Assembly: GCF_011745625.1 (NCBI RefSeq)
Contig: NW_027191473.1
Span: forward strand, 1-64,000
Direction: 5' to 3'
Length of the DNA stretch: 64,000 nucleotides
Source: Cladosporium halotolerans
Lineage: Eukaryota
The stretch's first letter is position 1; every line of letters starts with the position of its first letter. Below are positions 12,820 to 53,474 of the stretch, piece after piece. Under the pieces are notes generated by a model. The model did not search any database. It saw nothing but the letters and a program-made list of their open reading frames with translations, and was not told the DNA's origin. The position numbers were made by a program, and so were the translations under genes.

Positions 12820-15800
12820 ATGCCGCTCAATACCTTCGGCGTCGTGTCAGCCGTTACACCGTCCGTCATCGAGACCTACTTCTCGCACTTCCTCAATCGC
12901 GCTCCTCTACGCCAGAAGCCCACCGCGCACATTTCCTACCACGAGGGCTTGCGATTGATTCGTCAATTCCTGGATTACTCTGCGAAGCACACCGTCGAGG
13001 ATCTGCAGGCTTTCACGGCGCAATGGGTTCCCGCACCGACGTGGGTACGCATTCAGGATGTCGAGATCAGCGCGCAGTACCTCGAGCGCAGCGCGAGGCT
13101 TCTCCAGGAACAGTTAGGACCGAGAGGAATTGAGCTGGCAGGCGGGAAGACGTGGTGGCAATGGCGGCGGCCGGACGTGCCGCTGAAGGCCGAGTGGGTT
13201 GAAATGAAGAAGGATCACAATGAGCTGAAACGCGCTGGTATCAAGTGGGATAAAGCGATGCTTTACGTACACGGTGGTGCGTACTTCTTTGGTTCGGTGG
13301 ATGAACATCGGTACCAGATCCAGAGGCATGCGCGCAAGTTGAAGGCTAGGGTCTTTGCGCCGAGGTATAGGCTGGCTCCTCAGTTCCCGTTCCCTTGCGG
13401 GCTGCAGGATTGCATTGCTGCGTATCTTCAACTGTTGGAGGAATTTGAGCCCAGCCAAATTCTGTTTGCGGGCGACTCGGCAGGAGGTGGCATGGTCTTG
13501 AGCATGCTCGTGACGCTGAGGGATCAGGGAGTGCCGCTCCCTGCTGGCACCATTCTGCTGTCGCCTTGGGTGGATCTGACACACTCGTTTCCATCCGTTG
13601 CTGGAGACGGTGCCGGCGACTACATCCCTCCGCACGGGTTTCATCACAGGCCTTCCATGGTCTGGCCACCGCCCAACACCGACGAGCTCAGGGATCTCGC
13701 TGCTATTCCGATGAAGAAGAAAAAGTCGAAAGATGACCTTTCGTCCATGAACCACGAGCGCAAGGTGCCGCATGCCGACCGCGATCTATCTCTCTACGTC
13801 AATGGAGAAAGAGTGATCATCAAGGATCAAATTCAGATGTATGCGACGAACCACATGCTGGCGCATCCGTTGGTTTCGCCAGTGCAACAGCCCTCTTTAG
13901 GAGGTCTTCCCCCGATGCTCATTCAAGTCGGTGGCGCTGAGCTTCTTAGAGATGAACAAATCTACCTGGCTCACAAAGCGGCCGATCCCATGGCCTACCC
14001 GCCCAATGAATCGATTATGAAAGAGTACGGTCTTCGACGCGAGGATATCGGTAAATACCCACCGACGGATGTTCAGCTACAGGTGTGGGACGACCTTTGC
14101 CACGTCCCGCACACTCTCTCCTTCACCCGACCAGCCAAGTACATGTATAGAGCTGTCGCTCAGTTCGGCGCATGGGCGCTCGCTCATGCGCAGCACCGAC
14201 CTATCCAGATCATGGATGATGACCAAATTTCAATCATCAGCTCGGGAAACAACACGGAAAACGAAGCCAATGCGTCAACAACAAATCTCTCGAAGACGCG
14301 GTCGAGAGGTGGGGACCAGCCCACCGGCGCGGTTCGGCCATTAGCTCCGAAAGGTCAAAAGCCAAATGGTGAGGTTGGCAAGGCAGGCGCTCCTTTGCCG
14401 CCGTTCAGAGAGCACATGATCCGACAGCGGGTCGATCGTCATGGGGTCATCTATCCTCTTGTGCCGACTTCGGACATTCCTTGCTTGCATCTGGATCCCG
14501 AGAGCGTCGGCGCTATCAAGCCAGGGCCTGCCGGCAAATGGCTCGCGCACAAACGTGCCATGGATTCCAAATTTGCAAGCGAAAAGAAGAAAGTACAGAA
14601 GAAGCGAGTCAAGGAAATGCAGCAGGGCTATGCGTTCGTTGGCGAAGGCGAACACCCACCTCCTACTGCTCTTGCTGGTAGACGAACTGCAGACTTGCCT
14701 CCTGAGAAGCGGCTGAAGAAATCATGGGGCCTCGCCATGTGGTCCGGATGGGGCTCCAGCCACGATGAATCTCAACTTCAACGTGAAGAGACACTGGAGC
14801 GGGAAAGCAGCATTCGCCCGGAAAGCCGTCAACCCAGCGCTGCTGCGAACCCTCCAGCTCATGCCCCGGAGACTGCTGCTTTTAAGCCTTTTGGGTCCAA
14901 TGGCGATGCTATGGCTAGGAGCAGGGGCATGTCTAATTCTTCGCTGGTTTCGGATCTTTCGAAGCAGAATGATAGATCGGTCAGCCCTTTCGTGGCTGGT
15001 GGCGAAGATGGACGCGCGACGCCTAGTGTTCGAGGAGGCAGCAACCTCCGGCCGCCGGAGGACACGATTTCTCGAAGTGTCTCCCATACAAGCAGCAAAA
15101 TCTCAGCTGCCGCACCGCAGCAAGGTCCCGAATCGATCACGAAAACGGTTGCCCCGGCAGAGGTCACGAATGGCCAACACCACATCACCTCGGACCCAAA
15201 CGCGCTCGCTGCCCTGCCGCGCGTTCAATCACCGTCCAGCGACCGTGTGCAATCGCCAACGGAAGTTGGTCCTGTGGGAAGCAGTATTGCCGACGAATCT
15301 CACAAGACATCGTCCGAGGCTCCAGCATCAACCGCCAGTACCACTGATGGACCAGTGTCTTACCCATTCAAGATCCGTAACCCAATCCCAGGATATACGA
15401 GCAGCGTGGCAAGCTCTACAAACGACGATGGAACTGAAGCACAAACGTCAAGCACTTTGTTCCCCGCCGCCGGAGCAAATGGCTCCCGCTCTGCACTCGC
15501 ACGTCCAATTTCCTCCATCAATGCCTTCTCTGATAAAGAAATTGTGATGCCGACGTTCGAGAAGGAGGTCGCATTCGACTCTTCCAACCCATCTACGCCA
15601 ACAGATGGTAAAAACATGCCTTTCCGCATGCGCAATACGCCTGCGGATTCTCGCGCAGGCCCACCACGACTCGACACAAATTCGCTCACTACCATTCCAA
15701 CCAATGTTTCACAGGCGAGCTCCATTCCGGCAAGCCCTTCGGCTTCATACAGGGGTAAGGCGCCCGATGCCCATTACCGCAACCCTGCATTCGACCCGCG

Positions 15801-16569
15801 TGGTGTTGCGGCAAGAGTCTTTGGTGGTAGTCCTCACTCAGAGGCTTCAAACCCTACTGACAATATGTATCCGGCGGGGCCACCTAAGCCCGTAGGATTC
15901 GCATACAACCCTCGCGATCTGCGCAACGCAATGCTCAACCGCGCTGCTGCCGAGAACGCGGCTGCTAGCAATTCTCGCAACAACTCGCCTGCTCCAGCAT
16001 CAGCTGCGACTTATTCTGGCCAGATCTCTCATCCCTTTGGTGGAGCCGTCGAATTGCCTGCGGCGGCAGTCCCACACAAGCCCAGCTACGAGACTCTAAG
16101 TCGCGACTCAACGACGTCCCGCACTTCGGAGGGATCGAAGTCTACCAATGCAACGGGCACCTTCACAGACTTCAAGCTTCCGGATCCCAAACCCGTCGAG
16201 CTCTCCGCAACACCCTCAACCCGCAAACCGCTTTCCCCTTCAACCTCGCAATCACACAAGAGCCCTGAGCTCGCCGTGCGCGAAAACATCACAATGCCTG
16301 TCGTCGAGCCGCCGCGTGCTTCCCGCCCGCCTCCGCCTCCCCCGAAAGATGAGCCCAAATCGCCAGTCCGCTCGCCGCCAGTGCCAGCGAAAGAAATTTT
16401 CGAAAATAACGGCAAACAGCGCAAAGCGAGCCTCGAGCCCGCCTCGCCGTCGAGCGTCCGTGGCAATGCGCCCACGATCGGCGACCTGCCTGGTCTGAGG
16501 GAGGGAAATGGCTCCGGTCTCGACCTAGGCCTTAAGGATGCTGAGAACAAGCCGCCCGCATGGCTTTGA
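12820..16569 (+). CDS. Alpha/beta-hydrolase (HSL-family lipase/esterase) with a long disordered C-terminus
   Basis: LYVHGGAY (HGG oxyanion motif), YRLAPQFPFPCGLQD, AGDSAGG nucleophile elbow, LSPWVDL, GGAELLRDE. Confidence 0.9.
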   Translation: MPLNTFGVVSAVTPSVIETYFSHFLNRAPLRQKPTAHISYHEGLRLIRQFLDYSAKHTVEDLQAFTAQWVPAPTWVRIQDVEISAQYLERSARLLQEQLGPRGIELAGGKTWWQWRRPDVPLKAEWVEMKKDHNELKRAGIKWDKAMLYVHGGAYFFGSVDEHRYQIQRHARKLKARVFAPRYRLAPQFPFPCGLQDCIAAYLQLLEEFEPSQILFAGDSAGGGMVLSMLVTLRDQGVPLPAGTILLSPWVDLTHSFPSVAGDGAGDYIPPHGFHHRPSMVWPPPNTDELRDLAAIPMKKKKSKDDLSSMNHERKVPHADRDLSLYVNGERVIIKDQIQMYATNHMLAHPLVSPVQQPSLGGLPPMLIQVGGAELLRDEQIYLAHKAADPMAYPPNESIMKEYGLRREDIGKYPPTDVQLQVWDDLCHVPHTLSFTRPAKYMYRAVAQFGAWALAHAQHRPIQIMDDDQISIISSGNNTENEANASTTNLSKTRSRGGDQPTGAVRPLAPKGQKPNGEVGKAGAPLPPFREHMIRQRVDRHGVIYPLVPTSDIPCLHLDPESVGAIKPGPAGKWLAHKRAMDSKFASEKKKVQKKRVKEMQQGYAFVGEGEHPPPTALAGRRTADLPPEKRLKKSWGLAMWSGWGSSHDESQLQREETLERESSIRPESRQPSAAANPPAHAPETAAFKPFGSNGDAMARSRGMSNSSLVSDLSKQNDRSVSPFVAGGEDGRATPSVRGGSNLRPPEDTISRSVSHTSSKISAAAPQQGPESITKTVAPAEVTNGQHHITSDPNALAALPRVQSPSSDRVQSPTEVGPVGSSIADESHKTSSEAPASTASTTDGPVSYPFKIRNPIPGYTSSVASSTNDDGTEAQTSSTLFPAAGANGSRSALARPISSINAFSDKEIVMPTFEKEVAFDSSNPSTPTDGKNMPFRMRNTPADSRAGPPRLDTNSLTTIPTNVSQASSIPASPSASYRGKAPDAHYRNPAFDPRGVAARVFGGSPHSEASNPTDNMYPAGPPKPVGFAYNPRDLRNAMLNRAAAENAAASNSRNNSPAPASAATYSGQISHPFGGAVELPAAAVPHKPSYETLSRDSTTSRTSEGSKSTNATGTFTDFKLPDPKPVELSATPSTRKPLSPSTSQSHKSPELAVRENITMPVVEPPRASRPPPPPPKDEPKSPVRSPPVPAKEIFENNGKQRKASLEPASPSSVRGNAPTIGDLPGLREGNGSGLDLGLKDAENKPPAWL

Positions 16570-17227
16570 GGGTATGGCGAGTGCACGCATGGTCTTCACC
16601 GTTTTCTCCTTTTTTTGTAAATACTCTTAGTACATAGTAATACTTGGATACCCAGGCGATGGAGGGCACTTGTCGTTGAATGCCGACCCATTCTGCCAGT
16701 TCTTTTTGTACATACTTAGGCGCCAAGGCGGGGACGGCAATTGTTCTTCTTTTCAAAAGAATTGCCTTACTGTATCTCTTTTGTTCTCACTTCTGAGGCT
16801 GTATAAACTTTGACATTGGCCACCCTAGGTTTTCTCGAAAAGGCTGTGGTAAGATGTACGTGGAAGCTTCAAAAGACCAAATCGCACGCCCATTTCGCAA
16901 AGATGGTGTTGAATGGCGAGAAATACTGTTAACCTTCTACCGCTGTAAAGACGACGGAGTTATAATCTGTATGCGATAAGGCAGCTGCTAGCGGGCACGT
17001 GGCGGGGAGGCCTCGTTGGAGGCAAATTGAGGGACTGCAGGGAATTAGAGGTCCAGCAAATATCATATCTACCTAGCATCCAGGTGCTTTGAAGTGACCA
17101 TTTCGTGCCCATACGCTTCGCTTTCATTGTGATCATCATTCTAGGTTATACCTTACTCAAAAGGAATGTGCTCGTCGCCCTGACTAGTCTCTCTCGTCGT
17201 GTATTCATTCCGGCGTGGAGAGGTCGC

Positions 17228-20200
17228 TTACAGAGGGTTCCGAGGAAATTGTGCAGACCCCCTCGAGGGCGACAAATGACGCTCGGGCATATGCCTCTTT
17301 TCCTCCCGCTCAGGATTGTCCGGACGCCATTCGTAGGGTTCACGAGGCTCTATTCGCGTGTCTGGTGCGCGATCGTCCCGGTCCCCGTACACTCGTGATC
17401 CGCGTGACATCGGCATCTGTCGAGGCGGGTAGCCCCTGTCGTAAGCGTAGCTTCGACCTCCATAAAAATCCGCATATCTTGGGTCTTCTTCCGGGTACGG
17501 ATACCGTTGTCTTGAAGCCGTGGCGTAGTCATCTTCTCGGTCATGGGCGCGACGCGCCCTGTCCGCATCATCACCACCGTGGACTCTTTTGAGGTATCTG
17601 TCAAATTCAGTACTGGCTTTGACCACAGCCTCGAGATGACTGATATGCATGGTTCCCTTCGCGTCTGCTCCAGCCGGCGCTTTCTTGTCTGCTTCAGCCA
17701 GCGCCGCTGCCGTCTGACAGGCGTTGCGGATTTGTCTTCCGTTGCAGATTTGTGTTCCATCATTCAGACATTTCTTGTAGTTGTGCTCGCTCCATCGCAG
17801 TATTGCATCTTTGTCAATTTGAAGCAAAGGGCGAAGCTCCATCTGTCTCAAAATATTGACTTCCCAGATTTTTTGAGTCTGTTTTGCGTCGAGCTTGTCA
17901 TAGTACAGCGTCAGGTGGATGCGAGACTTGAAGGCTTCGTCAAACGCCCCAACCTTGTTCGTAGTGAGGAAGAGTATGCCAGAGTAGTACTCGAGCACAC
18001 GAAGGAAGACTGATACAATCGCATTCCGTTGCAGGTCTCTCTTGTCACCAGCGGCAAGGAACACGTCGGCTTCGTCGAGTAACATCACATAGCCCCAGCG
18101 ATGGGCGAGGTTGAGGATCTGTTCTAAGTTCTCTTGAACCTGTTCTGCAGTTTGCCCGATGTCGCCTTCATGTAATCGTCAGCTCCAGCATAAACGGAAG
18201 AGAATACACTAGATGATGGCACTGACCACAGGTGACTGACAGTAAGGGGCGTCTTGTATACTCAGCAACGCACTCAGCAGTGCTGGATTTTCCAACGCCT
18301 GGAACGCCATGTAAAAGAATTATGACCCCTTTGCCTTTGCCACGAACAAGATCTTCGCGACGATCGTTCTTACCGAGGCCGACCGATTCAGTCGTCGGCT
18401 TCACGCCCGTAGAATGCGTTTCTACGAGACCTTGAACCAATTGCTTATGTTCTTTCTGAAGTATCAAATCTTCAAAAGATTGCTGTCTCTGATCAAGTGG
18501 TCTGATTGAGTTCACCTCTAGCCGGTCTGGGCGATATCAGCCTCGCGAATCGGAAAAACAACATTAATTCCACTTACGCCATTTCCGAGTGCGCAAAACG
18601 TAAGACCAAAGACTTGACGGTAGTAGCAGTTGCCGCTCTGCGGTGAGTTCGGCACCAACACGGCTCTTTTGGAGTAAACCGGAAGTGTGATCGCGCATGA
18701 ATGCCAGCATCCTTTCGTTTTCCAATTCTCGATCGTCGAAGATGGCATTGGATCCTTTACCGATCTCCACAAAATGGATGCTGTCAGTTATTTCACGCTT
18801 TTCTCCAGGTGGTGGACGTCCAAGACCTATGATTGGCGACTCAGCGGGATTCAACTCGTAGTAGTATCCGGCGTCGATGATCACTTCACTGTCAATCTGA
18901 CGGGCGTTAGAAAACTTTCAGCAGCTATCTCATGCTTGGAAACTCACCTGCTCTCGGAATTTACCAATGTCGAACCCACGATATTCACGATGCGCAACTT
19001 GTGAGCTGTTGACCAGCTCGCAAAATTTTGCCCCTCTCAAGCGAAGCGCTGCTTCCTTTGCACTGGGGAAAGGTATTGCCTCAGCTTCGCTTTCATCGCC
19101 CGCCACACGAGCATATTCGATGGGGTACACGAGAAGCGATGTGATGGTCTGGTCGCCCTCCCAAGACTCAATGTTGTACTCGTGTTCCACCGGTCCAAAA
19201 GATTCGCCATTGAAGTCAATGCCGACAGCCAGAATCTGAAAGGGAGAGCTTGAGCCTGCAATTTGGGGGATGATTAGGGCGTTTGCATCAGCGTTGTCGA
19301 TATATGCATCGAGTATTGCACGTCCATTGTGAACACAAAGCACCTGAAGAGCTTGGTCAAGTTTTGGATCGTAAATGATATCGCCAGTGAAGAACAGGTG
19401 CCACAGATCGTCAAAAGCTATCCATGGTTTAGTTCTGTGCCGATACTCGAGGTGAGTCTTAGACTCAGCTCCCAGCTCGTTCTGCATCATCTCCAGTATC
19501 GCCTGTCCGGTAACTTTCTTATTGGCTTCACGGATCTGATCTTTCTTCTCAGCTTGTTCTGGCACTGGAGCGTTCGGCGAATTAGCTTGTTGATCAGGAG
19601 TGCTCTCTGCAATGTTCTCCTTCCCTCCATCTTCGAACTTCTCGCGGTTGTGATCTTGTTCGGGAGGTTTCTCTGACACTGTGACTGATTCATTCAATGG
19701 ATCCGGGGTTGATTTGGTGTTTTCATCTGAACATTGCTCCTTCTCTGGGTCATTGCTAAGGACGTTTTGGTCAGAGGCAAGAATTGGGCCTGGGTTCTCG
19801 TATCTTTTGAGCAGCTCCTTGTAGCAAAGAAACAGTGGTTTGAAAGGCCTCAGGACCGCCTCACCATTCCCCGGCATCGGTGGGCCGACGAGTTCTTCGA
19901 ATATATCCGAAACTCCTGTGTTGAGGAACCGTATGCGCTCAACTCTATGCCCTTCGTTGAGCTTCTCTGCGCTGGTGGTGGTGGCTCCTCTCGCACGTGG
20001 CCAGCGGGTGCTCGCTCGGTTCGCGAGAACGGGTTTCTCGGTAAGAAGAGCGGCGAAGCATGTTGGCTTCGTTTTTGAAATGTCGAGTGTAGTGAATCCG
20101 CCCCAGTCCAACTTAATCGTCGATAAAGTCCCACTTTGCAGGGGTGACATGCGATCTAGCTTGTTCTCGTCATCTTCTTCAACTTCGTCACCTTCTAACC

Positions 20201-20675
20201 ATCCTTTGGCTTGCATGACCTTCTCGATGGCCTTTACTCTGTCTGACATCAACATCTCATAAGCAGCTGTCATCATGAACCATGTCCGCGCCTTCTTACG
20301 CCTCTTCGGTATCGTAAACTCCAGTTTGTCCTCTTCGGAAAAGTAGAGTTGATGATGTTCAGGCCACATCAGTTGTTTTACACTTCTGAAACACTCCTCC
20401 CAGGCTACTTTCATTTGCTTTTCATGGAGTTCTTTCTCTGCGTCACCCAGTTGAGTTGCAGTCTCCGGAATGCTGGCATCTGGATTGGCTTTGCTTGATG
20501 TTCCATGAGCTTCTTCATCGCTATGCACCTCACATCAGGTAGCTTTTCTTTCAGATGACTCTTTGAAGGCTCCGAATGCAGCTGGCGAGATATCCAGAGC
20601 TCTTACAAGCTCAGATGTCCACATGCGATCTGCAGGAAGATCCGAGAAATTGAACTCCGGCGCATCACGAGCCAT
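17228..20675 (-). CDS. DUF7025-type fungal AAA+ ATPase; in-frame TGA at 20537-20535 (alternative start ATG 20414)
   Basis: Exons 20675-18948, 18896-18578, 18526-18227 and 18165-17228. Motifs RPFKPL, IAFDDLWHLF, DLVRGKGKGVIILLHGVPGVGKSSTAECVA (Walker A), LLDEADVFL (Walker B), FLRVLEYYSGILFLTTN, AFKSRIH, NGRQIRNA. Confidence 0.88.
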
Positions 20676-21196
20676 GATAAGGTCTGAAGCTCTGACCTGA
20701 GTTCCAGATGGTAGTGGATTGAGGCTATCCTGTGGCATGTAGCATATAGTAGCGACTCCTGAGCGACTGGAAGGTGAGAAGGCCGGGGCAGTCCAACAGG
20801 CAACCCTTATCGCTCCGACACTGCATTTGGCATGTGAGCAACCGCATCCGCTTGATGTCTGCAAGTGATCGGTCAATGGAGCTTTGGCGAATCAATAACG
20901 TCCATTTATAGTGCCACGTGCTGCCACGTATTCTCGAAATCAGGCTCGCAGGAAGCAGCACTGCTTTTGGGAAACGGTGGCCGCGCCAACGCGCATCAGA
21001 CGCTCGGTAGCTGCAAGTCTGGACCGGCAGCACGAAGTATTGGCGGATTCACGCAGCAAGGCATTCAGCTGGCGCGGGTATCGAATCCATGTCCCTCAGC
21101 CTCGCTTGCGAGCACGATCTTCACTCCACCTCATCGTGAAAGTGTTCTCACGGAAAGGCACTCGCCGATGCAAATCACAGCATCGAGACAACAGAA

Positions 21197-23126
21197 ATGC
21201 TTCCAGTCAATAGGATTCCACGGATTCATCTTGCAGCGCAGCCTGCGAACGACTTTGTCGACAATCGGTTGAGCGCTGTCGACTCTGTTTTTGCTATATG
21301 CGCTGGCAATCCAAGCAGCAAACTGCAGACACAGACGGTCACGGCAGATAATGGCTCAACTGGTGAGCCAAATGAGACGATCCTAGTGTCTGATGTTGCT
21401 CTCAGCGATCAGTCGCAGCAATTCCTCTCAGCTGTCGCAGCATATGAGCAAAGCCGCCACGGCAAGGGTAGCAAAGCCTTGGAGCTTGTTAATTCCAGTT
21501 CCTGGTCTGATGTACTTACTCAGGTTGAGCGTGTGCAGAGACAATACGAGGGCGCTGTCAAGACTGGCTTTCTGGGTAGTTTGCGTGGACGCTTGCGGAG
21601 CTTCGGAGAATGCAAGGCTCCAGTCGAGGCATGGCTCAAGCTTCTACCGTCTCAGTCGTGGCAAGGTTCTTTGGTGTGTGGAGGGGTGATGATTGTGGTC
21701 AACGTAAGCATGAAGTGTTCCATCTTGACGGACGAGGCGCGAAGTGTCCCTGATAAGCAACTGACTGTTTCAGGCTGCTGCCCGCCTTGGCGCCATCAGA
21801 GACGATGTTTGCGACGCGCTAGAGAGCATACCGGAGTCAATCGATAGCGTGCAGAAACTGGGAGACGTATATGCCGGTGCAGGATTCCTTCAGCTGCGTG
21901 CCAGCGCCATGTTTGTTGCAGTGCTTGGACTCTTGGAGCACGTCATCAAATGGTATACGGAAAATCCTGTACGGAAGGCTTTGAAGGCTGTTGCGCTTGG
22001 CGACGCCTATGGCAAGGAGCTCAAAAATCGCATTGATAGGATGTCAAAGTTGAGAGTCGAAGTGGAGCGGCAGGCAAGCGTCGCAGGTCATGTTCAAATG
22101 AATCAAAACATTCGACTAAGCCAGGAAATAAACAAGGGCGTCTTGATCTTACTGGAGGATCACCAGAGGAACTCTGAATACCAGAGGGGTGAGTCCTTCC
22201 ATTGAAAAACTTTACGGCTCATCTTCTCATCTGACCGTAGCTCTGGACGACCTTCGGGCGCGGCTGAGAGAAGCTGAAATTAGAGAGCAAAGGCAGAATG
22301 CCCGGATCTCTTGTAAGTCTTGTCACCAGCTTCCTGTCGATCAAGACTGACTGCTCAGATCTCATGCTACGCCTTCTGAATTACCGTCCATCTGACGCCT
22401 TGCGAGACCTCATGTGTGCGTTTAGCGATAGTTTCTAGTGAAACAGAGTACCAGGAAAGGGCCGCATGGACGTTGCAATCGCCCATTACCGCCGCATGGC
22501 TAGACAGCCCGCGGTCAAAGCTTCTCATCGTAAACAGCGAAGAGGACGATCACGACTCACAATCGGCGGTATCATTCTTCGCGAGCATGCTCGTCCGCGC
22601 GCTTGATGCCGCAAAGCCCGCAATTGTTCTTTACTGGTTTTGCAGCCAGCGCAGGAATGATTCGGTTTATTCGATGTTGAAGAGTCTTCTTTGTCAAATT
22701 CTCGACAATTTCAACGACCTCGAGGCGCCAGGGGATCTCAGCAATGATACGCACATAAGCATCGGACGCATGGCCAGTGTCTTCATCCGTTGCCTTGAGG
22801 TTCAGATGCGGTCGACATCGGTTTTTATACTGATTGACTCGCTCTCATACTATGAGAGCAGCGACAGGGTGCGAGACACTTGCTGGCTCCTCGATCGGAT
22901 TGCAGCTGTTGCCAGCTCTCAGCCACATTCCAGCGGTCACACTTTAAAAGTTTTGGTGACGAGCCCGACCAGGTTCTCAAGGCTGGGCCAAACACTCGAC
23001 CGACGATCCACGATGCTGCTGAGCGTGCCGGATATCATTAGTGGCAACAGTGCGGACCTTGATGACAGGAGGCTTATCCAGGCTGCTAGAATTCGACTCT
23101 TATCTCCACGCGAGGAGTATAGATGA
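21197..23126 (+). CDS. NACHT-like protein with degenerate P-loop and no C-terminal repeats; probable frameshift at ~22415
   Basis: Exons 21197-21703, 21774-22188, 22241-22312 and 22359(or 22426)-23126. N-terminal helical region (SWSDVL, WLKLLPS, LVCGG), then AWLDSPRSKLLIVN (no GKS/T), LYWFC, MLKSLLCQIL, VFILIDSLSYYE (Walker-B-like), LKVLVTSP. Confidence 0.72.
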
Positions 23127-24496
23127 GGCGGCGTTTTAGTGAATGTATTCGCCATGTGGACGCATTTGGCCAAGGTTCCTCAGATTGGGTCCTTTGAAGC
23201 ATTATGAATGCCGAAACGCCATTACAAACAGATTTCCCATTCGGGTGGCGTCATCGTCTGTGCTGTTGGCCGCATCTGCTTGCTCTGTGCACTCGTTTGC
23301 AGCTCCCAGATGATGCACTCCATGTGTTGAGTTGAAGAGTATTGAACCGGAATGGCGGACCTCGTGTCCGGGTGGTGGAATCTTCGCGCAGTTCCGGCGA
23401 CATCCCGCGTGGGGCTGTTCCCGTCCACACCGTAACAATATCTTTGGCCAGCCAGCGATGATGCCGACCTCATGAAGCACACCAGCAATCTAGATTGCTT
23501 CCACGGGAGACAACCACATTCACAGCGTCGCGGGATATATCGAGAACTGGTCTCGCTGGAGCCATCACGTGGATCGGATCTTGGCGGTCGTTTAGCGTCC
23601 ACTGGCGTTTCAGCTAGAGCATGGCTTGACGACGCTGCAGGGGGCGACTGGGGGGCGACTGGGGGTCTAGTGCACATGTAAAACGCCAGTGGCCATTTCG
23701 AGAGATTGCAACTAATCAGCTGCCGCGCTCTTGCTCTTCGCATCTCCACAGCAGAAGGCTGCCGGGTTGCTTGATTGTCTGCAGGGCTTTTCAGCGGCGA
23801 CCCCAGCAATATTAATCTCGCGCAGCGCCGAAATGATGCAAAGCCGCGCTGCATGCCGGGTACGGGCCTGTCGATGAATATTACGTGAGAGCGTGTGAAT
23901 GGTCGGCGCTTGCAGCGCGAATTGCATGGTTTCATTCGAAGCAACCGAGTTGGCCATCTGGGTCCCGGCCGTGTCCGCTCATGCCGGTGTGTTCCCTGTT
24001 CCCTGGGCCCTCGCGTATCGATGACCCTGCTCATATTTGGTAGTCAGCCGGGCAAGGGCATGCGCTGGCGGAGTTGTGGAGGTTTGAAGACAACGGCCGC
24101 CGCTCGTGCGTTCTCTCTTCACGTTTCACGCTTGCTGTAACGCAGTGTGGCAGTCTGCGACTCTGACTTTGGACGGCAATTGCTTTACTGGAGAGAGAGC
24201 GTGTCACCTGTGTTTCGTATGTCTCTTGTCGCTCCTTTGATAGTACTGTCGACTCTTCCTCTTGATCAGACGTCTCTGGCCTTATGGATTCCGGTTCCAA
24301 TATAGCCGTATTGTACAACGCCGCAACAGGACTCACGACCCGACGCCACATCTTTCCTTGAAACGAGATCGCGGGACAGATCAACCATATATCCATCTGC
24401 CAGGATAGGAGACGCCCGGAGCGTATAACACACTGCCTGGTGCATCTCGTACGACCCAGCTCGTCGTCGCATACATCACAAGCGCCCCAGGTTACG

Positions 24497-46432: not shown

Positions 46433-48943
46433 CATTGCTCGTCACAATGCATACTCCCCATGGACGTTCGAGTCTCAAGCTTATCGTCGGCTCCATCCAT
46501 CCGATCATAATCCGAACGAAAAGAAAGGGAATTCAGGTTCCGAGTTTTGAGTTATTGGGCTGTTACCGAGTCAAGTACAGAGCAATGATAGCTCCGTGAA
46601 TGGTTAATCTGGTCTACCGAACAGGTACAAAGTGTAAACACCAATTTCATTCGAACAAACTCGACTCCGATTTACCAACTCCGGAGTATTATGTGATCTG
46701 GAATTGCAGGGACATTAAGAAGCGGACAGCGCAAATGAGAGCAGAAAACGTATCACGAATGGAAATCACTGGCATCAATCATGCAGCTGCATTGTCGCGT
46801 CTGCGACCAGACTTGGAACACTTATTATGTGGTTCTTCGATTCAATCTGCGGGCAAGACCGTTTCCTCTCGCGCCTTGCCCACCAACCGCAGAATTCAAT
46901 GTCAAAGGCTTGACAGTTGGTTGAGATGTGATTGATGATGAAGTGATAATTAGGCAACTCCTGTAGTGGCGTCTGGGGGCGAGTCTGGGTCACCGCGATG
47001 CGAGAGCCTTGCGGGAGACCGCTGGCGCTTACTGTACGCTCGGGGACACATCAGACGCGGCGCCGGGTGTTTTCGAACCACCAAGGCCGACAACAATAAT
47101 TTCGCGCCTGGCTTGACCTGTCGTGCCAATCAGAACGACTACCGCCTATTGGATGCCGCAGTGCTTTGCAGACGTTTAATATTGCCCCGCCGTTGAGCGG
47201 TATCGTTCTCGATGAGATTGACGGTGTACCTTCTACAGCCGGCCACGTGTGGTGTGAGACACGGAGTGAGACAAGGCGGAATGGCGGCGCTTCTGTCGAT
47301 CGGCTCCTTCCTGATCGTATGGGGACGGTGTGTGAATACATGCAAAGTGATATAATTCATCCCGATCGAGAAAATCAACGACTACGTAGGTTAGATCAGT
47401 GGTGAAGTTCTGTCATCCCTCGGATAGGGATCTTGCATGTGTATATGAGCGTGCGTGCCAATCTGGAGTATGTAGTCCCAGACACCTCTCTTCACTACTA
47501 GGTAGCCGGCACAACTTCCCGACTGATGAGACCCGGCGCACCGTTTCCCATCCCACGGTCCACGCCGTTCGCAAGGGAAAACGAGGCGCTTGCCGACTGC
47601 AATATCAGCCTGTGTTATTTCCACGGCAGTTGGGAAGACGCAACTCTCGCAATCGCAGATCTACGGTCCGTAACGTACGGCCCCTACCTCCATCCCATCA
47701 CGCACCGTCGCCTCGCTTGCGCCGGCCTTGCGACATCGCGACGGACGACGCCTACATAGGTAGCACGAAACCAACCACAATCACGCCACACAGCCAATCA
47801 AAGCCGCAAAAGGCAGGTCCGCTCGAGCACGCTTTAACCCAAAAAGAAAAACCAACCTCAAAGCAAGCGAGCCGCCCTGCGCAGCGCAACACCCGCGGGA
47901 TCCCAAAAAAACATGCCGCACGCCCGGGCCGCGCGATGGAAATAGCAGGGGCGTAACCGTCAGTGGTGGACGCGGCGGCGGCGGCGGTGGACGGACATCC
48001 CACGCAACGCCAGCCCATGTGTCGTGGCTTGGAAAGCTTGATGGCACCAGAGCCGGAAGCGCGAAAGGCTAAAAAGCCAGGATCGGAGCGGAGCGTGCAC
48101 TAGGAGTTTCTCCTCGGCCGGCGGCTGTTGAGGATGTGAGGGGATGGCACGGGGGTCAAGGCGTCTCGTTTCGCAGCGCGGCAACGGCCGCTTGGACGGA
48201 CGGACCCACGAAAGGGAGATGCGGGGCACGTGCGCGCGACGAAGCGTGCCGAGTCAGGGCGAGTTGGGGCGTGATGAATCTGGCAGCATCTGGCGGATCT
48301 GGGTGGTGGTGAAGATCGGGGAAGGCGTGGGATTGTGCCGAGGGTAGGTGTGTACTGTAGGGCTCTGGCTGGGAGCGCTGCAGCGGTTGTTGCGGTTACG
48401 GTACAGGCTGGGTGGTCGGGCAGCAGCGCTGGAGCCGTACAGGACAGATGTCGGCTGAACGGCGTGCGGGCGGAGTCGTCACGAGCGAGGCGGACGGCGC
48501 CAAGGAGTGGGAGTGGTCGGCGTGGTCGGTCGCGGGCGGGCGTTTGTCCAGAATGGCTGCTGGTCCTGCTGGTCAGGAGGAGGCTGCCGTCATACCGGAC
48601 CGGGGGTGGGTACGCTGGGCGGGTGGGGCGCGCGAGGGAGATGGGCCAGAAAAGCTTGACAGGCGCAGCGGCGCCGTCGCCGTCTCCATCTCCAGCCCCC
48701 GAAATGATGCGTGGGCGGGCGAGGAGGGTGGAGGGCTGCGCGGGCTGCGCGTGCGGTGCTGCTAGCGCCCGCGCTGCCGTCGTTGCAGGTGCAGGACGCT
48801 GGAGTGGAGTGGAGCGCCTACCAATGGTCCACTGCGCGCCGCGCCGCGTCGGCCGAGGGTGCAGGGTGCAGGGCGTGTGGCGGCGGTGGACGATGGCGCA
48901 TCGAATCTGCCCGATGACAAGCGTGACAACGCCGGGCGACGCC

Positions 48944-48988
48944 ATGGCTGATGGCTGATGGCTGATGGCTGATGGCTGATGGCTGATG
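48944..48988. repeat. (ATGGCTG)x6.4 tandem repeat
   Basis: Six perfect 7-mer copies plus ATG, read directly. Confidence 0.95.
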
Positions 48989-50298
48989 CGCAGGCAGATG
49001 GGCGCATCGGCCGGTACGTACCTCCTGCACGCCTCCTGCACGCCTCCTGCGCGCGGGCTGGATGGGCTGCTGCAGGCCGTCGCCGCAGTTTGCTGCCCGT
49101 TCACTCCTCTGCCCTGTCCTGAGCGCCCGGCCTGCGCGCCCGGCCTGCGCGCCCGGCCTGCGCGCTTGCTGTCGTGTTACAACCGCGAGCGGGTCTCATC
49201 TCAGCCAGCTCCTGCTGCTGCGTCCGCTGCGCGTCTGGCTCCGGGCAGCCCTGTGGCACCACCAGCTGGCTCATGCACGCCATCCACATACACACCTACC
49301 TAACGCGCCCAAGACCTACAGTAGTCAGGCAAGCCCGGCCGCGACGCTGCCCTGCCCCGTGCCAGAGCCCGCGAGCGCAACGCGAGCCAGACCTCCGTCC
49401 GCGTCCGTCCTACATACAAGAGGACAGGGCAAACGCCCACACACCTACCCACCCACCCTCCCTCCCTCCCAATGCACCACACCCTCCCGCGCGTGCCCGC
49501 GGATTAAGGTGCTGACTCCCGGTGACAAGGCTGTCTCACGCCTCGGCCGCCCGCCGCAACCTCGACCTTGCGCCGCGCTACCGTGCCTGCGGACTCTGGA
49601 TGCCTGTCACCAACCCTGGCACCTGCGGCCGCCGTGCGACAAGCAAGAAGCCGTGGGCGCGCGACACTTTGGCGGGAGGGGGCATGCGAGCGGCCGGCCG
49701 AAGGTGGCACAGCACTACTGTATGTGTAGGTGATGGTGAAGGCTGCACGCTGCACGCTGCATGCGGGCTGCGGGCGGGCTGGCTGCGGTCGCCCCCAGGA
49801 CCACCACCGCAGCATCTCGCATCCTCATGTACGCGCATGTGCGCCCGAGCCAGGAACGGCCGGCAGAGGTGACGCGCCGGGTGGAGGTGCGCTTTGTACG
49901 GGGAATCGCACGTGAAAGAGGGCGAGGCGCGAGGCTGCGGTGGCTGTCTGGCGGGCTGCTGCGGTGAGAGGCGACGAGGCGACGGGGCGTGTGGCTTCGC
50001 GGCGACGCATGGCTGTGCCTGATCAGGACGGCAGCTTATGAAGATTGTTGCTTGCTTGCGGCCCACTCCTGCTCTCCAGGCGGGCGGTAACGGATGGCTG
50101 GCGCCGGGCGGCGGCAGGGCGCGTCTGAGCGGCGGCGTGTCTCGGCTGGCGGGAGGCGCGACAGGCGACTGGCCCGCGCTCCAACGCCCGCGCGGCTTGG
50201 CAGATGTGGAGAGACGCAGCGACGCCAGCGGCAGCCGACGATGATCCCGGCTCAGCCCAGGGTGCGCCGCAGGCTGCAGCCCGCACACGCTTTGGCGC

Positions 50299-50336
50299 GC
50301 AGCCCATGCAGCCCATGCAGCCCATGCAGCCCATGC
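50299..50336. repeat. (GCAGCCCAT)x4 tandem repeat
   Basis: Four perfect 9-mer copies, read directly. Confidence 0.95.
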
Positions 50337-50789
50337 GTCGCCTACCCACTCTACCCACTCTCTCTGATCGCGTCCAACCCTTACCCACGCCCTCAAGGCC
50401 AGCCGCGACCGAGCGCATGCCCGCCCGCACCCACTCCGTTTCCTCTCGCTCTTCCCTCCACCCTCGCACGCCGCTCTCTCCTCCGCCCTCCCATCCATCG
50501 CCCTCGCGCGCCCCCATCGCACCCAGCACCCAGCGCCCACTCTCCCTCGACTGTTGCTCCCCTGCTGCACCGCAGCACCTGCCCCTCCGCCTGCCCTGCT
50601 TCGGCCTTCCCTTTCCGGAGCCGCTGCCGCACACGCCTGTCGCGAGCGCGTACAGGTAAGTCGCGAAGCTCGTGCGATCAACCGATCCACCGCGATCGAT
50701 GGACGAATCGCCCAACGCTTGACCTCCGCACCTCACTGACCCTCTCCTCCAGCACCTCGACCCTTCGCCTCTGACCTGCGTCCTCCACC

Positions 50790-53474
50790 ATGGCGACTCA
50801 GCAGTCGCCGTCTGGGCCTCTCGCCCACCAGCAGCACTACCCGCCGCGTCCACAGCCCAACGGCGGCATGCCCATGCCGCCGCAACAGGCGCCTCCGCAG
50901 CCCAAGACCACCGCGCAGATCCTCGCCGCCGCCAACGAAGGCATCTGGATCCAGCTGGGTACCCTCTCCGAGATGATGGGCGAACTCGACGGCGCGACCC
51001 AATCGTATGAGCGCGCGTTGACCTTCAACCCGCGCTCCGTCCCGGCCATGCTCGCCATCTCCTGCCTGCTTCGCGCGAAAGACCAGTTCACCGCCGCCGT
51101 CGAATACCTCAGAAACATCCTCATGGTGGAACCCTCGAACGGCGAGGTCTGGAGCAGCCTTGGCCACTGCTACCTCATGATGGACGACCTGCAGCAGGCC
51201 TACTCCGCCTACCAACAGGCCCTGTACCACCTGCCCGATCCCAAGGAGCCCAAGCTGTGGTACGGCATAGGCATCTTGTACGACCGCTACGGCTCGCTGG
51301 AGCACGCCGAAGAAGCCTTCTCCCAAGTCATGCGCATGGAGCCGAACTTTGAGAAGGCCAACGAGATCTACTTCAGACTTGGTATAATATACAAGCAGCA
51401 GCAAAAGTTCCAGCAGAGTCTCGAGGTGAGTCAAATTCGAATGGAGGTACTGTCGTGCGACATCGCTAACAACGCCACAGTGCTTCCGTTACATTGTCAC
51501 CGACCCTCCCAAGCCTCTCAGCGAGGAAGACATTTGGTTTCAGATCGGTCACGTGCACGAGCAGCAAAAGGACGTAAGTTCATGGATACCTGCTCTTGCC
51601 TGAGGTGGCACCGCTGACGCGATTACAGTATGACTCTGCCAAGTCAGCCTACACGCGTGTCCTTGAGCGCGATCCCAACCACGCCAAGGTTCTTCAGCAA
51701 CTCGGCTGGCTTCACCACCAGCAAAGCACAAGCTTTAGCAGCCAAGAGCAGGCTATCGAATATCTCGAGAAGTCTGTTGCTTCCGGTAGGTCACCTTGCA
51801 TTGCTACGACCACCTGATCACGTCTAACAACCTCCAGACCAAAACGATGCTCAAAGCTGGTACCTACTCGGCAGATGCTACATGTCTCAGCAGAAGTATC
51901 CCAAGGCCTACGAAGCCTACCAGCAAGCCGTGTACCGCGATGGTCGTAACCCGACTTTCTGGTGTTCGATTGGTGTGCTCTACTACCAGATCAACCAGTA
52001 CCGCGATGCGCTCGACGCGTACTCCCGCGCCATCCGCCTCAACCCTAACATTTCTGAGGTCTGGTATGACCTTGGTACGCTTTACGAGTCCTGCAACAAC
52101 CAGACAAGTGACGCGCTTGACGCCTACACCCGCGCTGCCGACCTCGACCCGACAAATGTACACATCAAGGCTCGTCTGGCTTTGCTCAAGGGCCAACCTA
52201 CCAACGGTCTTCCCAACCAGGCTGGCGCGCCTTTGCCTCAGGACGTGCATCCTCAGGCTTACCAGCCAGGCGCTCTCGGTGGCCCACCAGGCCCTCAATG
52301 GGGCGCTCATGCGCAGAGCGGCCCGCCTGCTGGTCCCGCTCCGCCACCTCTTGCCACTGGCAACAACTGGGGAGGCAACCGCATCGCCGACATTCAGAAC
52401 CCGCCTCCACCTCCCCCGGTCAACCCGTATGATTCTCGGGATCGCGCACCTCCTCAGCCGCAACCTCCCATGGCTTCTCGTGGACCCAGCCCACCTCGCC
52501 AGGAGACTCTCCGTCCGTACCAAGAGCCCCAGCGTCCTCTGCCCCCGGCTCACCGCGGTCTGTCCCCCTCTCCTAAGAACCAGCAGTCAACTCCGCATCA
52601 ATCCGCTGCAGCCACTATGCCGCCGCACCCGGGCTTCGGAACCCCCGGCCACCCCCAACAGCAGGCTCCGGCCCCAGGCCAGCCCCTGTTCGGCCAAAGT
52701 GGTGGTCCTCCCCCGAACGGTGTACCTCCGCCCACGAGCCACACTCCTGTGCCACCTTTCAACCGCCAGCAGAGCCCTCGTCCCGAGATCAGGCCTATCG
52801 TCAACAACCCAGCTCCATCTCCCGGTGGCGGATTCCCCAGGACACCATATGAGCACCACGCGAGCTCGGGCATGCCACAGATTGCGAGCGGCGCCCCGCC
52901 GCCCTCCAACGCCCAATTCGCCGCTGATGCCGCGGCTCGCGAACGCGAAGAGAGGCCCAGCAGCACAGCCCCGCCAAAGCGCATTCGCGAGTGGGAAGAC
53001 GACCAGAGCGTCAAGCGTCCCGCGACCGATGAGTCCCGCTCGCGCCTCGACGAGATCAAACTCCAGCGCCAGTCCCCGCAGCCCCTCAAGGTCTCCACGC
53101 CGCCCAACCGCAGCCCCTCGGAACTGCGCCGCCTCGACGAGCAGCGCCCCTCCTCCACCTACCACCCTTCTGAGGCCGCGCACCACCCGCCCGCCCCGCC
53201 CTCGCTCCCTTCCATGCAGACCATCGCTCAGCCCTCGCCTTCGCGCGCCTCCGCCCCGCCCCAGGAAGACCAGCGTCCCGCCCCGCCGCCTCCCGCCGCG
53301 CCGGTCTACGAACCCGCGGCGAGGAAGATGGAGGTCGACGAGAACTACGACGACAGCGGCGACGACGACAAGCGCTCCGCCAAGCACGAGAGCCGCCGCA
53401 GCAGCCCAAAGCCCGTCAACGGCTCCTCGGGTGCTCCGACTTCCGGCGCCAGCGCTGTCGAGCAGCAGGCTTAG
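50790..53474 (+). CDS. CYC8: General transcriptional corepressor Cyc8/Ssn6 (TPR protein)
   Basis: Exons 50790-51425, 51481-51573, 51629-51785 and 51838-53474. TPRs GEVWSSLGHCYLMMDDLQQAYSAYQQAL, LWYGIGILYDRYGS, NPTFWCSIGVLYYQINQYRDALDAYSRAIRLNP. A 5'UTR intron lies at ~50655-50752. Confidence 0.96.

Follow-up and report, generated by a model that had tools for sequence, protein, structure and literature searches.

A P-loop-less NLR remnant and its neighbouring AAA+ ATPase gene in Cladosporium halotolerans: a candidate two-gene module conserved in Pezizomycotina

Two divergent genes at the locus

The subject of this study is a pair of divergent genes at positions 17,228 to 23,126 of a 64,000-nucleotide stretch of the Cladosporium halotolerans genome (NCBI RefSeq assembly GCF_011745625.1, contig NW_027191473.1, positions 1 to 64,000 of the forward strand), which as a whole is called the window below. 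One gene, A, encodes an AAA+ ATPase; the other, N, resembles part of a fungal NOD-like receptor (NLR). A first-pass annotation of the window had proposed that the two form a unit for non-self recognition or defence, and its coordinates, quoted strings and the 521-bp spacer (20675/21197) were all correct. New here are the family-wide loss of the P-loop in N together with a short protein form, the conserved pairing of N with A, and a 2-bp deletion in the N copy of the sequenced strain.

The start codons are ATG at 20675 on the minus strand for A and ATG at 21197 on the plus strand for N. The features of the pair are:

17228-20675, minus strand: gene A, five exons in the gene model (20675-20607, 20528-18948, 18896-18578, 18526-18227, and 18165-17228 including the stop codon)
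19110-19442, minus strand: DUF7025 domain of A (PF22942; Pfam E = 5.1e-19)
18285-18308, minus strand: Walker A of A, GVPGVGKS, intact and nearly invariant in the 39-sequence alignment A4
18065-18088, minus strand: Walker B of A, VMLLDEAD, intact, with D540, E541, A542 and D543 invariant in A4
17573-17893, minus strand: AAA_lid_13 of A (PF23232, a fungal AAA+ lid; Pfam E = 4.6e-16)
20676-21196, no strand: spacer between the divergent start codons, 521 bp, presumed to be a shared promoter region
21197-23126, plus strand: gene N, four exons (21197-21703, 21774-22188, 22241-22312, 22359-23126); this splice model reproduces the protein of the homologues (P0004)
21584-22097, plus strand: DUF7708 helical domain of N, Goodbye-like (PF24809; exon 2 scores 25.5 bits, cut-off 25)
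22380-23126, plus strand: reading frame of the pseudo-NTPase of N (a NACHT-derived nucleotide-binding fold), 248 codons; in this strain its frame does not match that of exons 1-3
22429-22438, plus strand: frameshift site of N, a 2-bp deletion (GG follows 22429 in relatives and is missing here)
22515-22574, plus strand: former Walker A site of N, reading KLLIVNSEEDDHDSQSAVS / SKLLIVNSEEDDHDSQSAVS
22833-22856, plus strand: Walker-B-like IDSLSYYE of N, its Asp present in 147 of 151 aligned rows (the window's row counted)
22944-22973, plus strand: LKVLVTSPTR, the most conserved motif of the N family (T in 134, S in 110, P in 119 and R in 77 of 151 rows)

Gene A as assembled encodes an uninterrupted protein of 1068 aa, and its four introns (78, 51, 51 and 61 nt) all have GT..AG ends. 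Four public sequencing runs, X1, X3, X5 and X16, were compared with the window over 17000-23400. Three of the four introns (introns 2-4) were backed by joints in the X3 contigs, which skip 18897-18947, 18527-18577 and 18165-18225 exactly and show CT..AC ends; the joint over 18897-18947 was also seen in X16. X3 gave little or no cover over intron 1 of A and over some other parts of the region. Since the X3 contigs lack three predicted introns, gene A is transcribed and spliced as modelled. The X3 contigs alone also carry single-base deletions at 18103 and 19265, which lie in G runs (GGG and GGGGG) and are therefore probably read errors, not RNA or strain differences.

The AAA domain of A was recognised in the window's exon 4 by PF00004 (26.8 bits, cut-off 21.2; E = 8e-6) and in nine relatives with 37.6-73.2 bits. 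The domain order DUF7025, AAA, AAA_lid_13 was the same in the window protein and in 9/9 relatives scanned with Pfam, and neither NACHT nor NB-ARC was matched in the window's exons or in these nine. Among the 39 aligned relatives of A, the Walker A, the Walker B, an FLTTN strand, an FDEAFKSRIH block and GRQIRN show little or no variation, and each is present in the window. In the FDEAFKSRIH block, which is the second region of homology, D585, A587, F588, S590, R591 and H593 are invariant in all 39 sequences, and its Arg is presumably the arginine finger. Judged by these motifs, A is a single-module classical-type AAA+ ATPase with intact ATP-binding and hydrolysis motifs, and Pfam together with the strings GVPGVGKS and LLDEAD agrees with its earlier description as a DUF7025-type gene with intact Walker A and B.

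AAA unfoldases thread their substrates by means of an aromatic-hydrophobic-Gly pore loop 1. In a profile alignment with p97, the A family has 'GDIGet.ake' opposite 'IMSKLAGE' of D1 and 'LLTMWFGE' of D2, leaving a one-residue gap relative to p97 and no aromatic residue at pore loop 1. At this place (18227-18260), where threading AAA proteins carry the aromatic loop, C-G-D-I-G is conserved family-wide. With a pore loop 1 of this kind A may not thread substrates conventionally, and so may not be a conventional unfoldase.

The remainder of A is less readily classified. An AlphaFold model of exon 2, with a pLDDT (predicted local distance difference test) of 70, predicts a small beta-barrel for DUF7025, besides helices and a small alpha/beta unit. 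This barrel has a weak likeness to KOW, Tudor and SH3-like domains (VIA, Z <= 6.0), with the NusG KOW domain as best match (Z 6.0, 54 residues, 1.7 A), and Foldseek gave nothing below E = 0.28 for the exon 2 model. The folded helices and the alpha/beta unit are predicted upstream of DUF7025, at 19758-20441 (residues about 30-257); this region has a conserved L-R-P-F-K motif, matches no Pfam family and was scarcely probed by the fold searches. Beyond AAA_lid_13, the C-terminal tail is Arg/Asp-rich, of low complexity, and reaches 17231.

On the other side of the spacer, the DUF7708 domain of N is split by intron 1 (21704-21773), and the last exon is matched by NPHP3_N, the N-terminal half of NACHT-type NTPases, with 37.2 bits (cut-off 24.8; E = 4.3e-9). 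The former Walker A site has NSEEDDHDSQS and not G-x4-GK[ST]. In alignment A1 the Walker-B Asp never varies, and a Glu six positions further on hardly does. We take LKVLVTSPTR to occupy the place of the NACHT strand-4/sensor-1 motif. The open reading frame (ORF) ends at 23126, about 50 residues past the last strand, and no winged-helix part follows the nucleotide-binding domain (NBD). No ANK, WD40 or TPR repeats were found by Pfam in the ORFs of the window or in 16 full-length relatives.

The fold of N was examined in P0004, its closest full-length relative (38% identity). The AlphaFold model of P0004 has a mean pLDDT of 78, with the blocks of the NBD mostly at about 90 or above. Its N-domain is helical; then come one helix some 60 residues long (295-355) and a five-stranded alpha/beta domain (about 359-575), past which there is just one helix (586-611). 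With the alpha/beta domain, VIA found Cdc6/Orc1 (Z 13.9, 174 residues, 3.7 A) and Avs3 (Z 13.9), followed by Sir3 (12.2), NRC2 (12.0), MalT (11.9), Apaf-1 (11.4) and CED-4 (11.0). Foldseek gave a similar list, its best E of 3.4e-3 falling under its confidence bar. Because this one domain filled the lists, the N-terminal helical domain was scarcely probed. A profile of the N domain matched a SIR2-STAND protein marginally among the sequences of the PDB (E = 0.41). The ESM Atlas groups P0004 with Ascomycota clusters that have 103, 322 and 101 members. The automatic name of two of these three is 'Fungal STAND N-terminal Goodbye domain-containing protein', and that of the third is 'Nephrocystin 3-like N-terminal domain-containing protein'; clusters of canonical DUF7708+NACHT proteins lie further away. 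On sequence and predicted structure, N is the front half of a fungal NLR, with a Goodbye-like head, a long helix (about 60 residues) and a NACHT-derived fold without P-loop, winged helix or sensor repeats.

P-loop loss and conserved adjacency across the families

The N family was collected by searching 1.84 billion representative proteins with the 248-codon frame, which returned 389 proteins at E <= 1e-3, each standing for a cluster at 50% identity; 70 of them reached E <= 1e-10 and 6 reached E <= 1e-30. Among the best 150 relatives, 27 have at least 500 aa and the longest has 701 aa, full-length members being about 510-700 aa; another 82 are under 300 aa and are mostly ORF-level fragments. 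The pseudo-NTPase match forms the C-terminal end in all 15 relatives whose sequences were inspected. Sixteen full-length members were scanned with Pfam (E <= 0.01), which found NPHP3_N in 15, DUF7708 in 13 and both in 12. A profile search with 27 sequences of the family found two proteins, one of them P0004, and a search with exon 4 of N for longer homologues found none among 2959 candidates.

The G-x4-GK[ST] motif occurs in none of the best 150 relatives, anywhere in the protein, and a bare GKT is kept in 2 of the 141 aligned rows that cover the Walker A site. Where the P-loop used to be, the family consensus reads L-[LIV]-[IV]-N-G-N-x3-H-x3-S-x2-S, and the best-conserved motifs of the family are W-F-C-G, D-x2-S-x-Y-E and L-K-x-L-x-T-S-P-x-R. 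All 150 relatives share the short, P-loop-less form, so the absence of Walker A and of a sensor is ancestral to the N family; for the same reason, private decay of a full NLR was ruled out as the origin of N. The first-pass description of N as a 'P-loop-less NACHT-like' gene thus holds, with NPHP3_N above its cut-off and the Walker A site lost as a family trait (0/150 with the motif). Its further statements that IDSLSYYE is kept and that sensor repeats are lacking are likewise upheld by the ORF end at 23126 and by the repeat scan.

Relatives of A were collected with its last exon, which matched at least 3652 proteins (E <= 1e-20) out of 8000 candidates that were scored; of these matches, the best 120 were used by name. 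On the N side, 29 representatives were checked for names, of which 8 had no organism, leaving 21 named clusters. Two genes were counted as adjacent when the N gene and a listed DUF7025-AAA-AAA_lid_13 protein had consecutive locus tags or accessions and lay on contigs of equal length. By this measure an A-type gene adjoins the N gene in 8 of the 21 named clusters, in nine species from four classes of Pezizomycotina:

Acrodontium crateriforme: R9X50_00419400/300
Neophaeotheca triangularis: MBLNU230_g6166/g6167
Dothideomycetes sp. NU459: g0171/g0172
Lasiodiplodia theobromae: KAF4545366/65
Circinaria calcarea: Q9187_004777/78
Polycauliona sp.: Q9169_006596/95
Glutinoglossum americanum: FGG08_005635/36
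Tuber indicum: KAG0124129/30
Tuber melanosporum (a member of the T. indicum cluster): CAZ83069/68 (GSTUM_00006633001/6632001)

In Tuber brumale, agreement is limited to the length of the contig. The classes, from taxonomy look-ups for six species, are Dothideomycetes (Mycosphaerellales, Neophaeothecales and Botryosphaeriales), Lecanoromycetes, Geoglossomycetes and Pezizomycetes. The sharpest test was given by the best full-length relative of N, P0004, which adjoins P0153, the second-best relative of A, in one genome. Among the matches listed, the closest named homologues are from Dothideomycetes. The other 13 named clusters, which include Aspergillus, Rasamsonia, Xylariales, Orbiliomycetes, Lepraria and second copies in Glutinoglossum and Sphaerosporella, were left unscored, as the best 120 contained no A-type protein of those genomes. 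Scans of metagenomes for the DNA context of N relatives gave 86 pattern matches with A2 and 85 with P0003, none of which was confirmed.

The first-pass annotation had treated the two genes as a unit that should be linked elsewhere, and in the nine named species they are immediate neighbours, which speaks strongly for a unit. Being neighbours across four classes, N and A probably work together. The two families differ in pace: between classes, identity is 21-33% for N and 32-43% for A, so that N is the faster-evolving partner, and most named genomes hold one or two copies of N.

A 2-bp deletion in the N copy of the sequenced strain

The N copy in the window differs from its relatives by the 2-bp deletion after 22429, as a result of which the frame entering exon 4 meets a TAG at 22436-22438. 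The predicted truncated product of about 357 aa consists of DUF7708 and the coiled coil. Run X1 is identical to the window over the whole stretch, and X3, another sample of the same study, matches it with 14/14 pieces at least 99% identical. Neither X1 nor X3 has the GG after 22429, while both X5 (contig about 99% identical) and X16 (about 96%) have it. P0001, a 96%-identical ORF from the protein library, is in frame across the deletion site. Unlike the deletions peculiar to X3, the GG site is not a homopolymer run.

Two X3 contigs (22014-22343 and 22333-22757) follow the genome without a gap over introns 2 and 3 of N and are thus unspliced there, and none of the X3 contigs showed a spliced joint of N, although contigs cannot show absence. 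The presence of these two introns could come from intron retention proper, antisense transcription or DNA carry-over. An alternative gene model for N, with an acceptor at 22425 and an in-frame product of 564 aa, was set aside as the main form since it skips 22 residues that the homologues contain; contig 22333-22757 is colinear through these 22 residues.

We lean slightly towards the view that this genome is without a working pair, N being a recent pseudogene and A acting alone or with other partners. The deletion and stop codon, missing from the two related runs and from P0001, speak for it, as do X3 contigs that are unspliced over N while the introns of A are removed. It is tempered by several considerations. 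Splicing to the alternative acceptor at 22425 would keep the frame and could yield a 564-aa product minus 22 residues, and the product of about 357 aa, which keeps the whole DUF7708 and the coiled coil, could itself be active. That 248 codons downstream have stayed open marks the lesion as young. The deletion is supported by runs of one study (X1, probably the source of the window, and X3) set against two relatives, and is thus not fully independent. Finally, a lesion in one strain does not conflict with a module in the family. Truncated after the coiled coil, N in the sequenced strain probably leaves the module disabled or altered and the 'unit' half-broken, going by the reading frame. The pair that the first-pass annotation inferred to act as a unit is upheld as conserved neighbours, and the frameshift, which it overlooked, qualifies it for this strain.

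A single X16 contig (19834-23400, from the relative about 96% identical) runs from the 5' portion of A across the spacer and through the whole of N. The GC content is 0.49-0.54 in the A/N block and 0.55-0.57 in the flanks, and GC at third codon positions is 0.52 for A, 0.55-0.59 for N and 0.57-0.85 for six neighbouring ORFs; the lower GC that had been reported for the block is real but modest. The flanking genes are of housekeeping type, encoding OSBP, a WD40 protein, TSR2, an alpha/beta hydrolase, an actin-related protein and Brr2.

Some further observations concern the surroundings. Just downstream of N, a 273-codon ORF (23222-24043, minus strand) is Arg/Pro-rich, matches no family and is probably not a gene; X3 contigs reach 23254. 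A single ORF at 12820-16569 encodes a 1249-aa protein of which the first 270 residues or so are Abhydrolase_3 (E = 1.2e-40) and the other more than 900 are Ser/Pro-rich and disordered-looking. At 48000-51000 the GC content rises to 0.68-0.70 and long ORFs overlap on both strands (e.g. 48103-49176, 49581-50732 and 50026-51024), with no Pfam match. Runs X4-X24, which are labelled as air, dust, soil and surface metagenomes and as several other organisms, contain about a quarter to a half of the 31-mers of the stretch; because these occur in many environmental runs, close relatives seem to be widespread.

A possible two-gene module and its relation to known systems

In canonical NLRs, nucleotide-driven oligomerisation of the NBD gathers the N-terminal domains. 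N has kept a head, a long helix and the surface of an NBD that is strongly conserved though P-loop-less, and the most economical interpretation is that a partner ATPase sets the assembly state of N. We give about even credence to the view that A and N are a conserved two-gene module of ancient origin in Pezizomycotina, with an NLR remnant that relies on an AAA+ partner of its own. N would then have no nucleotide switch of its own and its assembly state would be set in trans by A. One possibility is that A takes N oligomers apart and keeps N silent, in the manner of TRIP13 on HORMA proteins or of a guard, so that N would fire if A were blocked or overwhelmed; another is that A serves as a platform that clusters the helical heads of N. 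The output would probably be regulated cell death or a stress or non-self response, in line with the canonical Goodbye-NACHT NLRs.

TRIP13 and similar AAA+ proteins dedicated to a signalling adaptor act by disassembly. Since TRIP13-like partners work in this way, and since the sequenced strain has lost N while keeping and expressing A, our analysis slightly favours negative control, with A keeping N disassembled, over the platform role. The loss of N with A retained would fit N as a potentially costly or dangerous partner, which is weak evidence.

A bolder form of the module, which we regard as improbable, is a 'split NLR': a Goodbye-NACHT receptor that lost its ATPase switch and its sensor in the ancestor of Pezizomycotina, ATP-dependent control passing to the neighbouring AAA+ protein. 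The two proteins would then form a two-gene, resistosome-like death or immune switch, in which the AAA ring guards or clusters the MLKL-like heads of the pseudo-NLR. Goodbye-like domains have a four-helix core in common with HeLo/MLKL, as described in the accessible passages of PMC9815663.

A number of points weigh against a two-gene immune module. As to the head of N, the same passages treat a cell-death activity of Goodbye-like domains as not established (PMC9815663). The Pfam Goodbye model matched none of the 16 full-length N relatives at E <= 0.01, and the Goodbye label of N has the automatic cluster names as its source. On the side of A, the nearest solved sequences are Msp1 (E = 3.9e-6) and, with the family profile, p97 (E = 2.4e-4), which are generic AAA matches only, and in this strain the X3 contigs of N are unspliced, as described above. 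As to the pairing, the rate of adjacency is a lower bound that could lie well under 100%, since only the best 120 of at least 3652 A relatives were visible, and the head-to-head orientation was seen in the window and in the relative about 96% identical only. Distances of the partners are correlated over eight independent taxa (r = 0.45, Mantel p = 0.027), a value that is modest, confounded by the species tree and weak as support; over ten pairs r was 0.98, driven by three near-identical Tuber species, and weight was given to the eight-taxon value only. A complex prediction for the Lasiodiplodia pair, with residues 1-712 of A and 280-563 of N (the N-terminal half of N left out), scored 0.00, gave no answer and counts for neither side. 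That A and N bind each other, which of them controls the other, and that the pair serves immunity or cell death are inferences, as is the adaptor or inhibitor mechanism proposed in the first-pass annotation.

The modest correlation, together with evidence that concerns gene order and not function and an orientation limited to close relatives, also lends itself to a different account, namely that two unrelated accessory genes are adjacent by inherited synteny with no functional link. We consider this very improbable. As a rule, these fungi preserve gene order badly over between-class distances, yet A and N persist as neighbours in genomes of four classes, and in the window they diverge from a 521-bp spacer. 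By our own rough estimate, chance adjacency to one given family would occur in about 1% of genomes or less.

Some of the same evidence would also suit a pair that is a real unit but a conserved housekeeping or stress module, for example in (membrane-)protein quality control, with N as substrate adaptor for the AAA motor. We find this doubtful. The pair sits among OSBP, WD40, TSR2, Arp and Brr2 genes, it is old and vertically kept across four classes, and the low N copy number shows no large NLR-like expansion; moreover, the best solved sequence relative of A, Msp1, is a membrane-protein extractase. The Msp1 match is weak, however, and the pore loop of A is without the aromatic residue expected of a threading extractase. 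N, for its part, is made of NLR parts (DUF7708/Goodbye-like and a NACHT-type fold) and evolves fast relative to A, and its inactivation here, with intact copies in relatives, is behaviour to be expected of a conflict gene sooner than of a core component.

The interest of the two-gene module lies in the fact that fungal NLR-like genes are numerous, and almost none has a known partner or mechanism; the A/N pair offers fungal immunity research a testable two-protein system. It presents a sharply defined family of short, P-loop-less NLR remnants that lie beside one kind of AAA+ gene where gene order was readable, in truffles, lichens and black yeasts among others, and it gives a functional context to three Pfam families without any (DUF7025, DUF7708 and AAA_lid_13). 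It would add one more pseudo-ATPase that depends on a real ATPase, and the strain-level loss of N with A kept hints at which partner is costly. If true, the 'split NLR' would be a new class of eukaryotic innate-immune module across filamentous ascomycetes.

A full-text literature search for DUF7025, DUF7708, PF22942, PF23232, PF24809 and AAA_lid_13 found no paper, and a broader search on NLRs, AAA proteins and neighbouring genes found no title or abstract describing the A/N pair. Nor was the pair mentioned in the accessible main-text passages of PMC9815663, PMC12258605 and bioRxiv 10.1101/2024.11.26.625400, the supplementary tables lying outside the search.

Several known systems share features with the pair. 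The canonical fungal Goodbye/DUF7708-NACHT-repeat NLRs (Dyrka et al. 2014, PMC4986451; Wojciechowski et al. 2022, PMC9815663), as treated in the accessible parts of PMC9815663, resemble N in the class of helical domain and in the NACHT-type fold, and those passages make no mention of an AAA-ATPase partner. N, in contrast, has no Walker A, winged helix or ankyrin, WD40 or TPR repeats, is about 510-700 aa long, and is tied to an AAA gene.

The spread of one immune-type machine over two adjacent genes is known from NLRs of the HET-S/NWD2 type with their adjacent effector (PMC3321046, PMC9815663, as far as accessible), and plant sensor/helper NLR pairs are arranged head to head (PMC12258605, same limitation), as A and N are in the window. 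Such head-to-head pairs are rare in Sordariales, with 13 among 225 two-NLR clusters according to the accessible text of PMC12258605. The partner in the A/N pair differs from both in being an AAA+ ATPase, neither an NLR nor a HeLo-type effector with an amyloid motif, and N differs from the members of two-gene NLR modules in lacking both the sensor and the switch.

Among pseudo-ATPases of the ORC/STAND type, Sir3 and Rif2 are like N in having the same kind of fold, lost nucleotide binding and a role as interaction scaffolds; Rif2 was present in the Foldseek list for the P0004 model. They have no sequence relationship to N beyond the fold, act on chromatin and are not known to have a dedicated ATPase gene partner. 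As for A, Msp1/ATAD1 and p97/Cdc48 share with it the Walker A, the Walker B, the second region of homology and PF00004, whereas A has the DUF7025 barrel, a middle region and AAA_lid_13, and a pore loop 1 that is one residue shorter than that of p97 and has no aromatic.

A concept like that proposed for A is found in TRIP13/Pch2 with HORMA proteins (CBASS) and IetA of IetAS, in which a dedicated AAA+ protein controls the assembly state of a non-enzymatic signalling protein. The best PADLOC/NCBIfam matches of A relatives were to IetA/IteA (E about 1e-11) and TRIP13 (1.4e-9), with an IteA score of 44.6 bits against a cut-off of 510 and a TRIP13 match over the generic AAA core only; N had no match in these collections. 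Scores so far under the cut-offs demonstrate nothing beyond general AAA similarity. The partner of A is neither a HORMA protein nor a protease, and the likeness to TRIP13-HORMA and IetAS is an analogy of mechanism and not membership.

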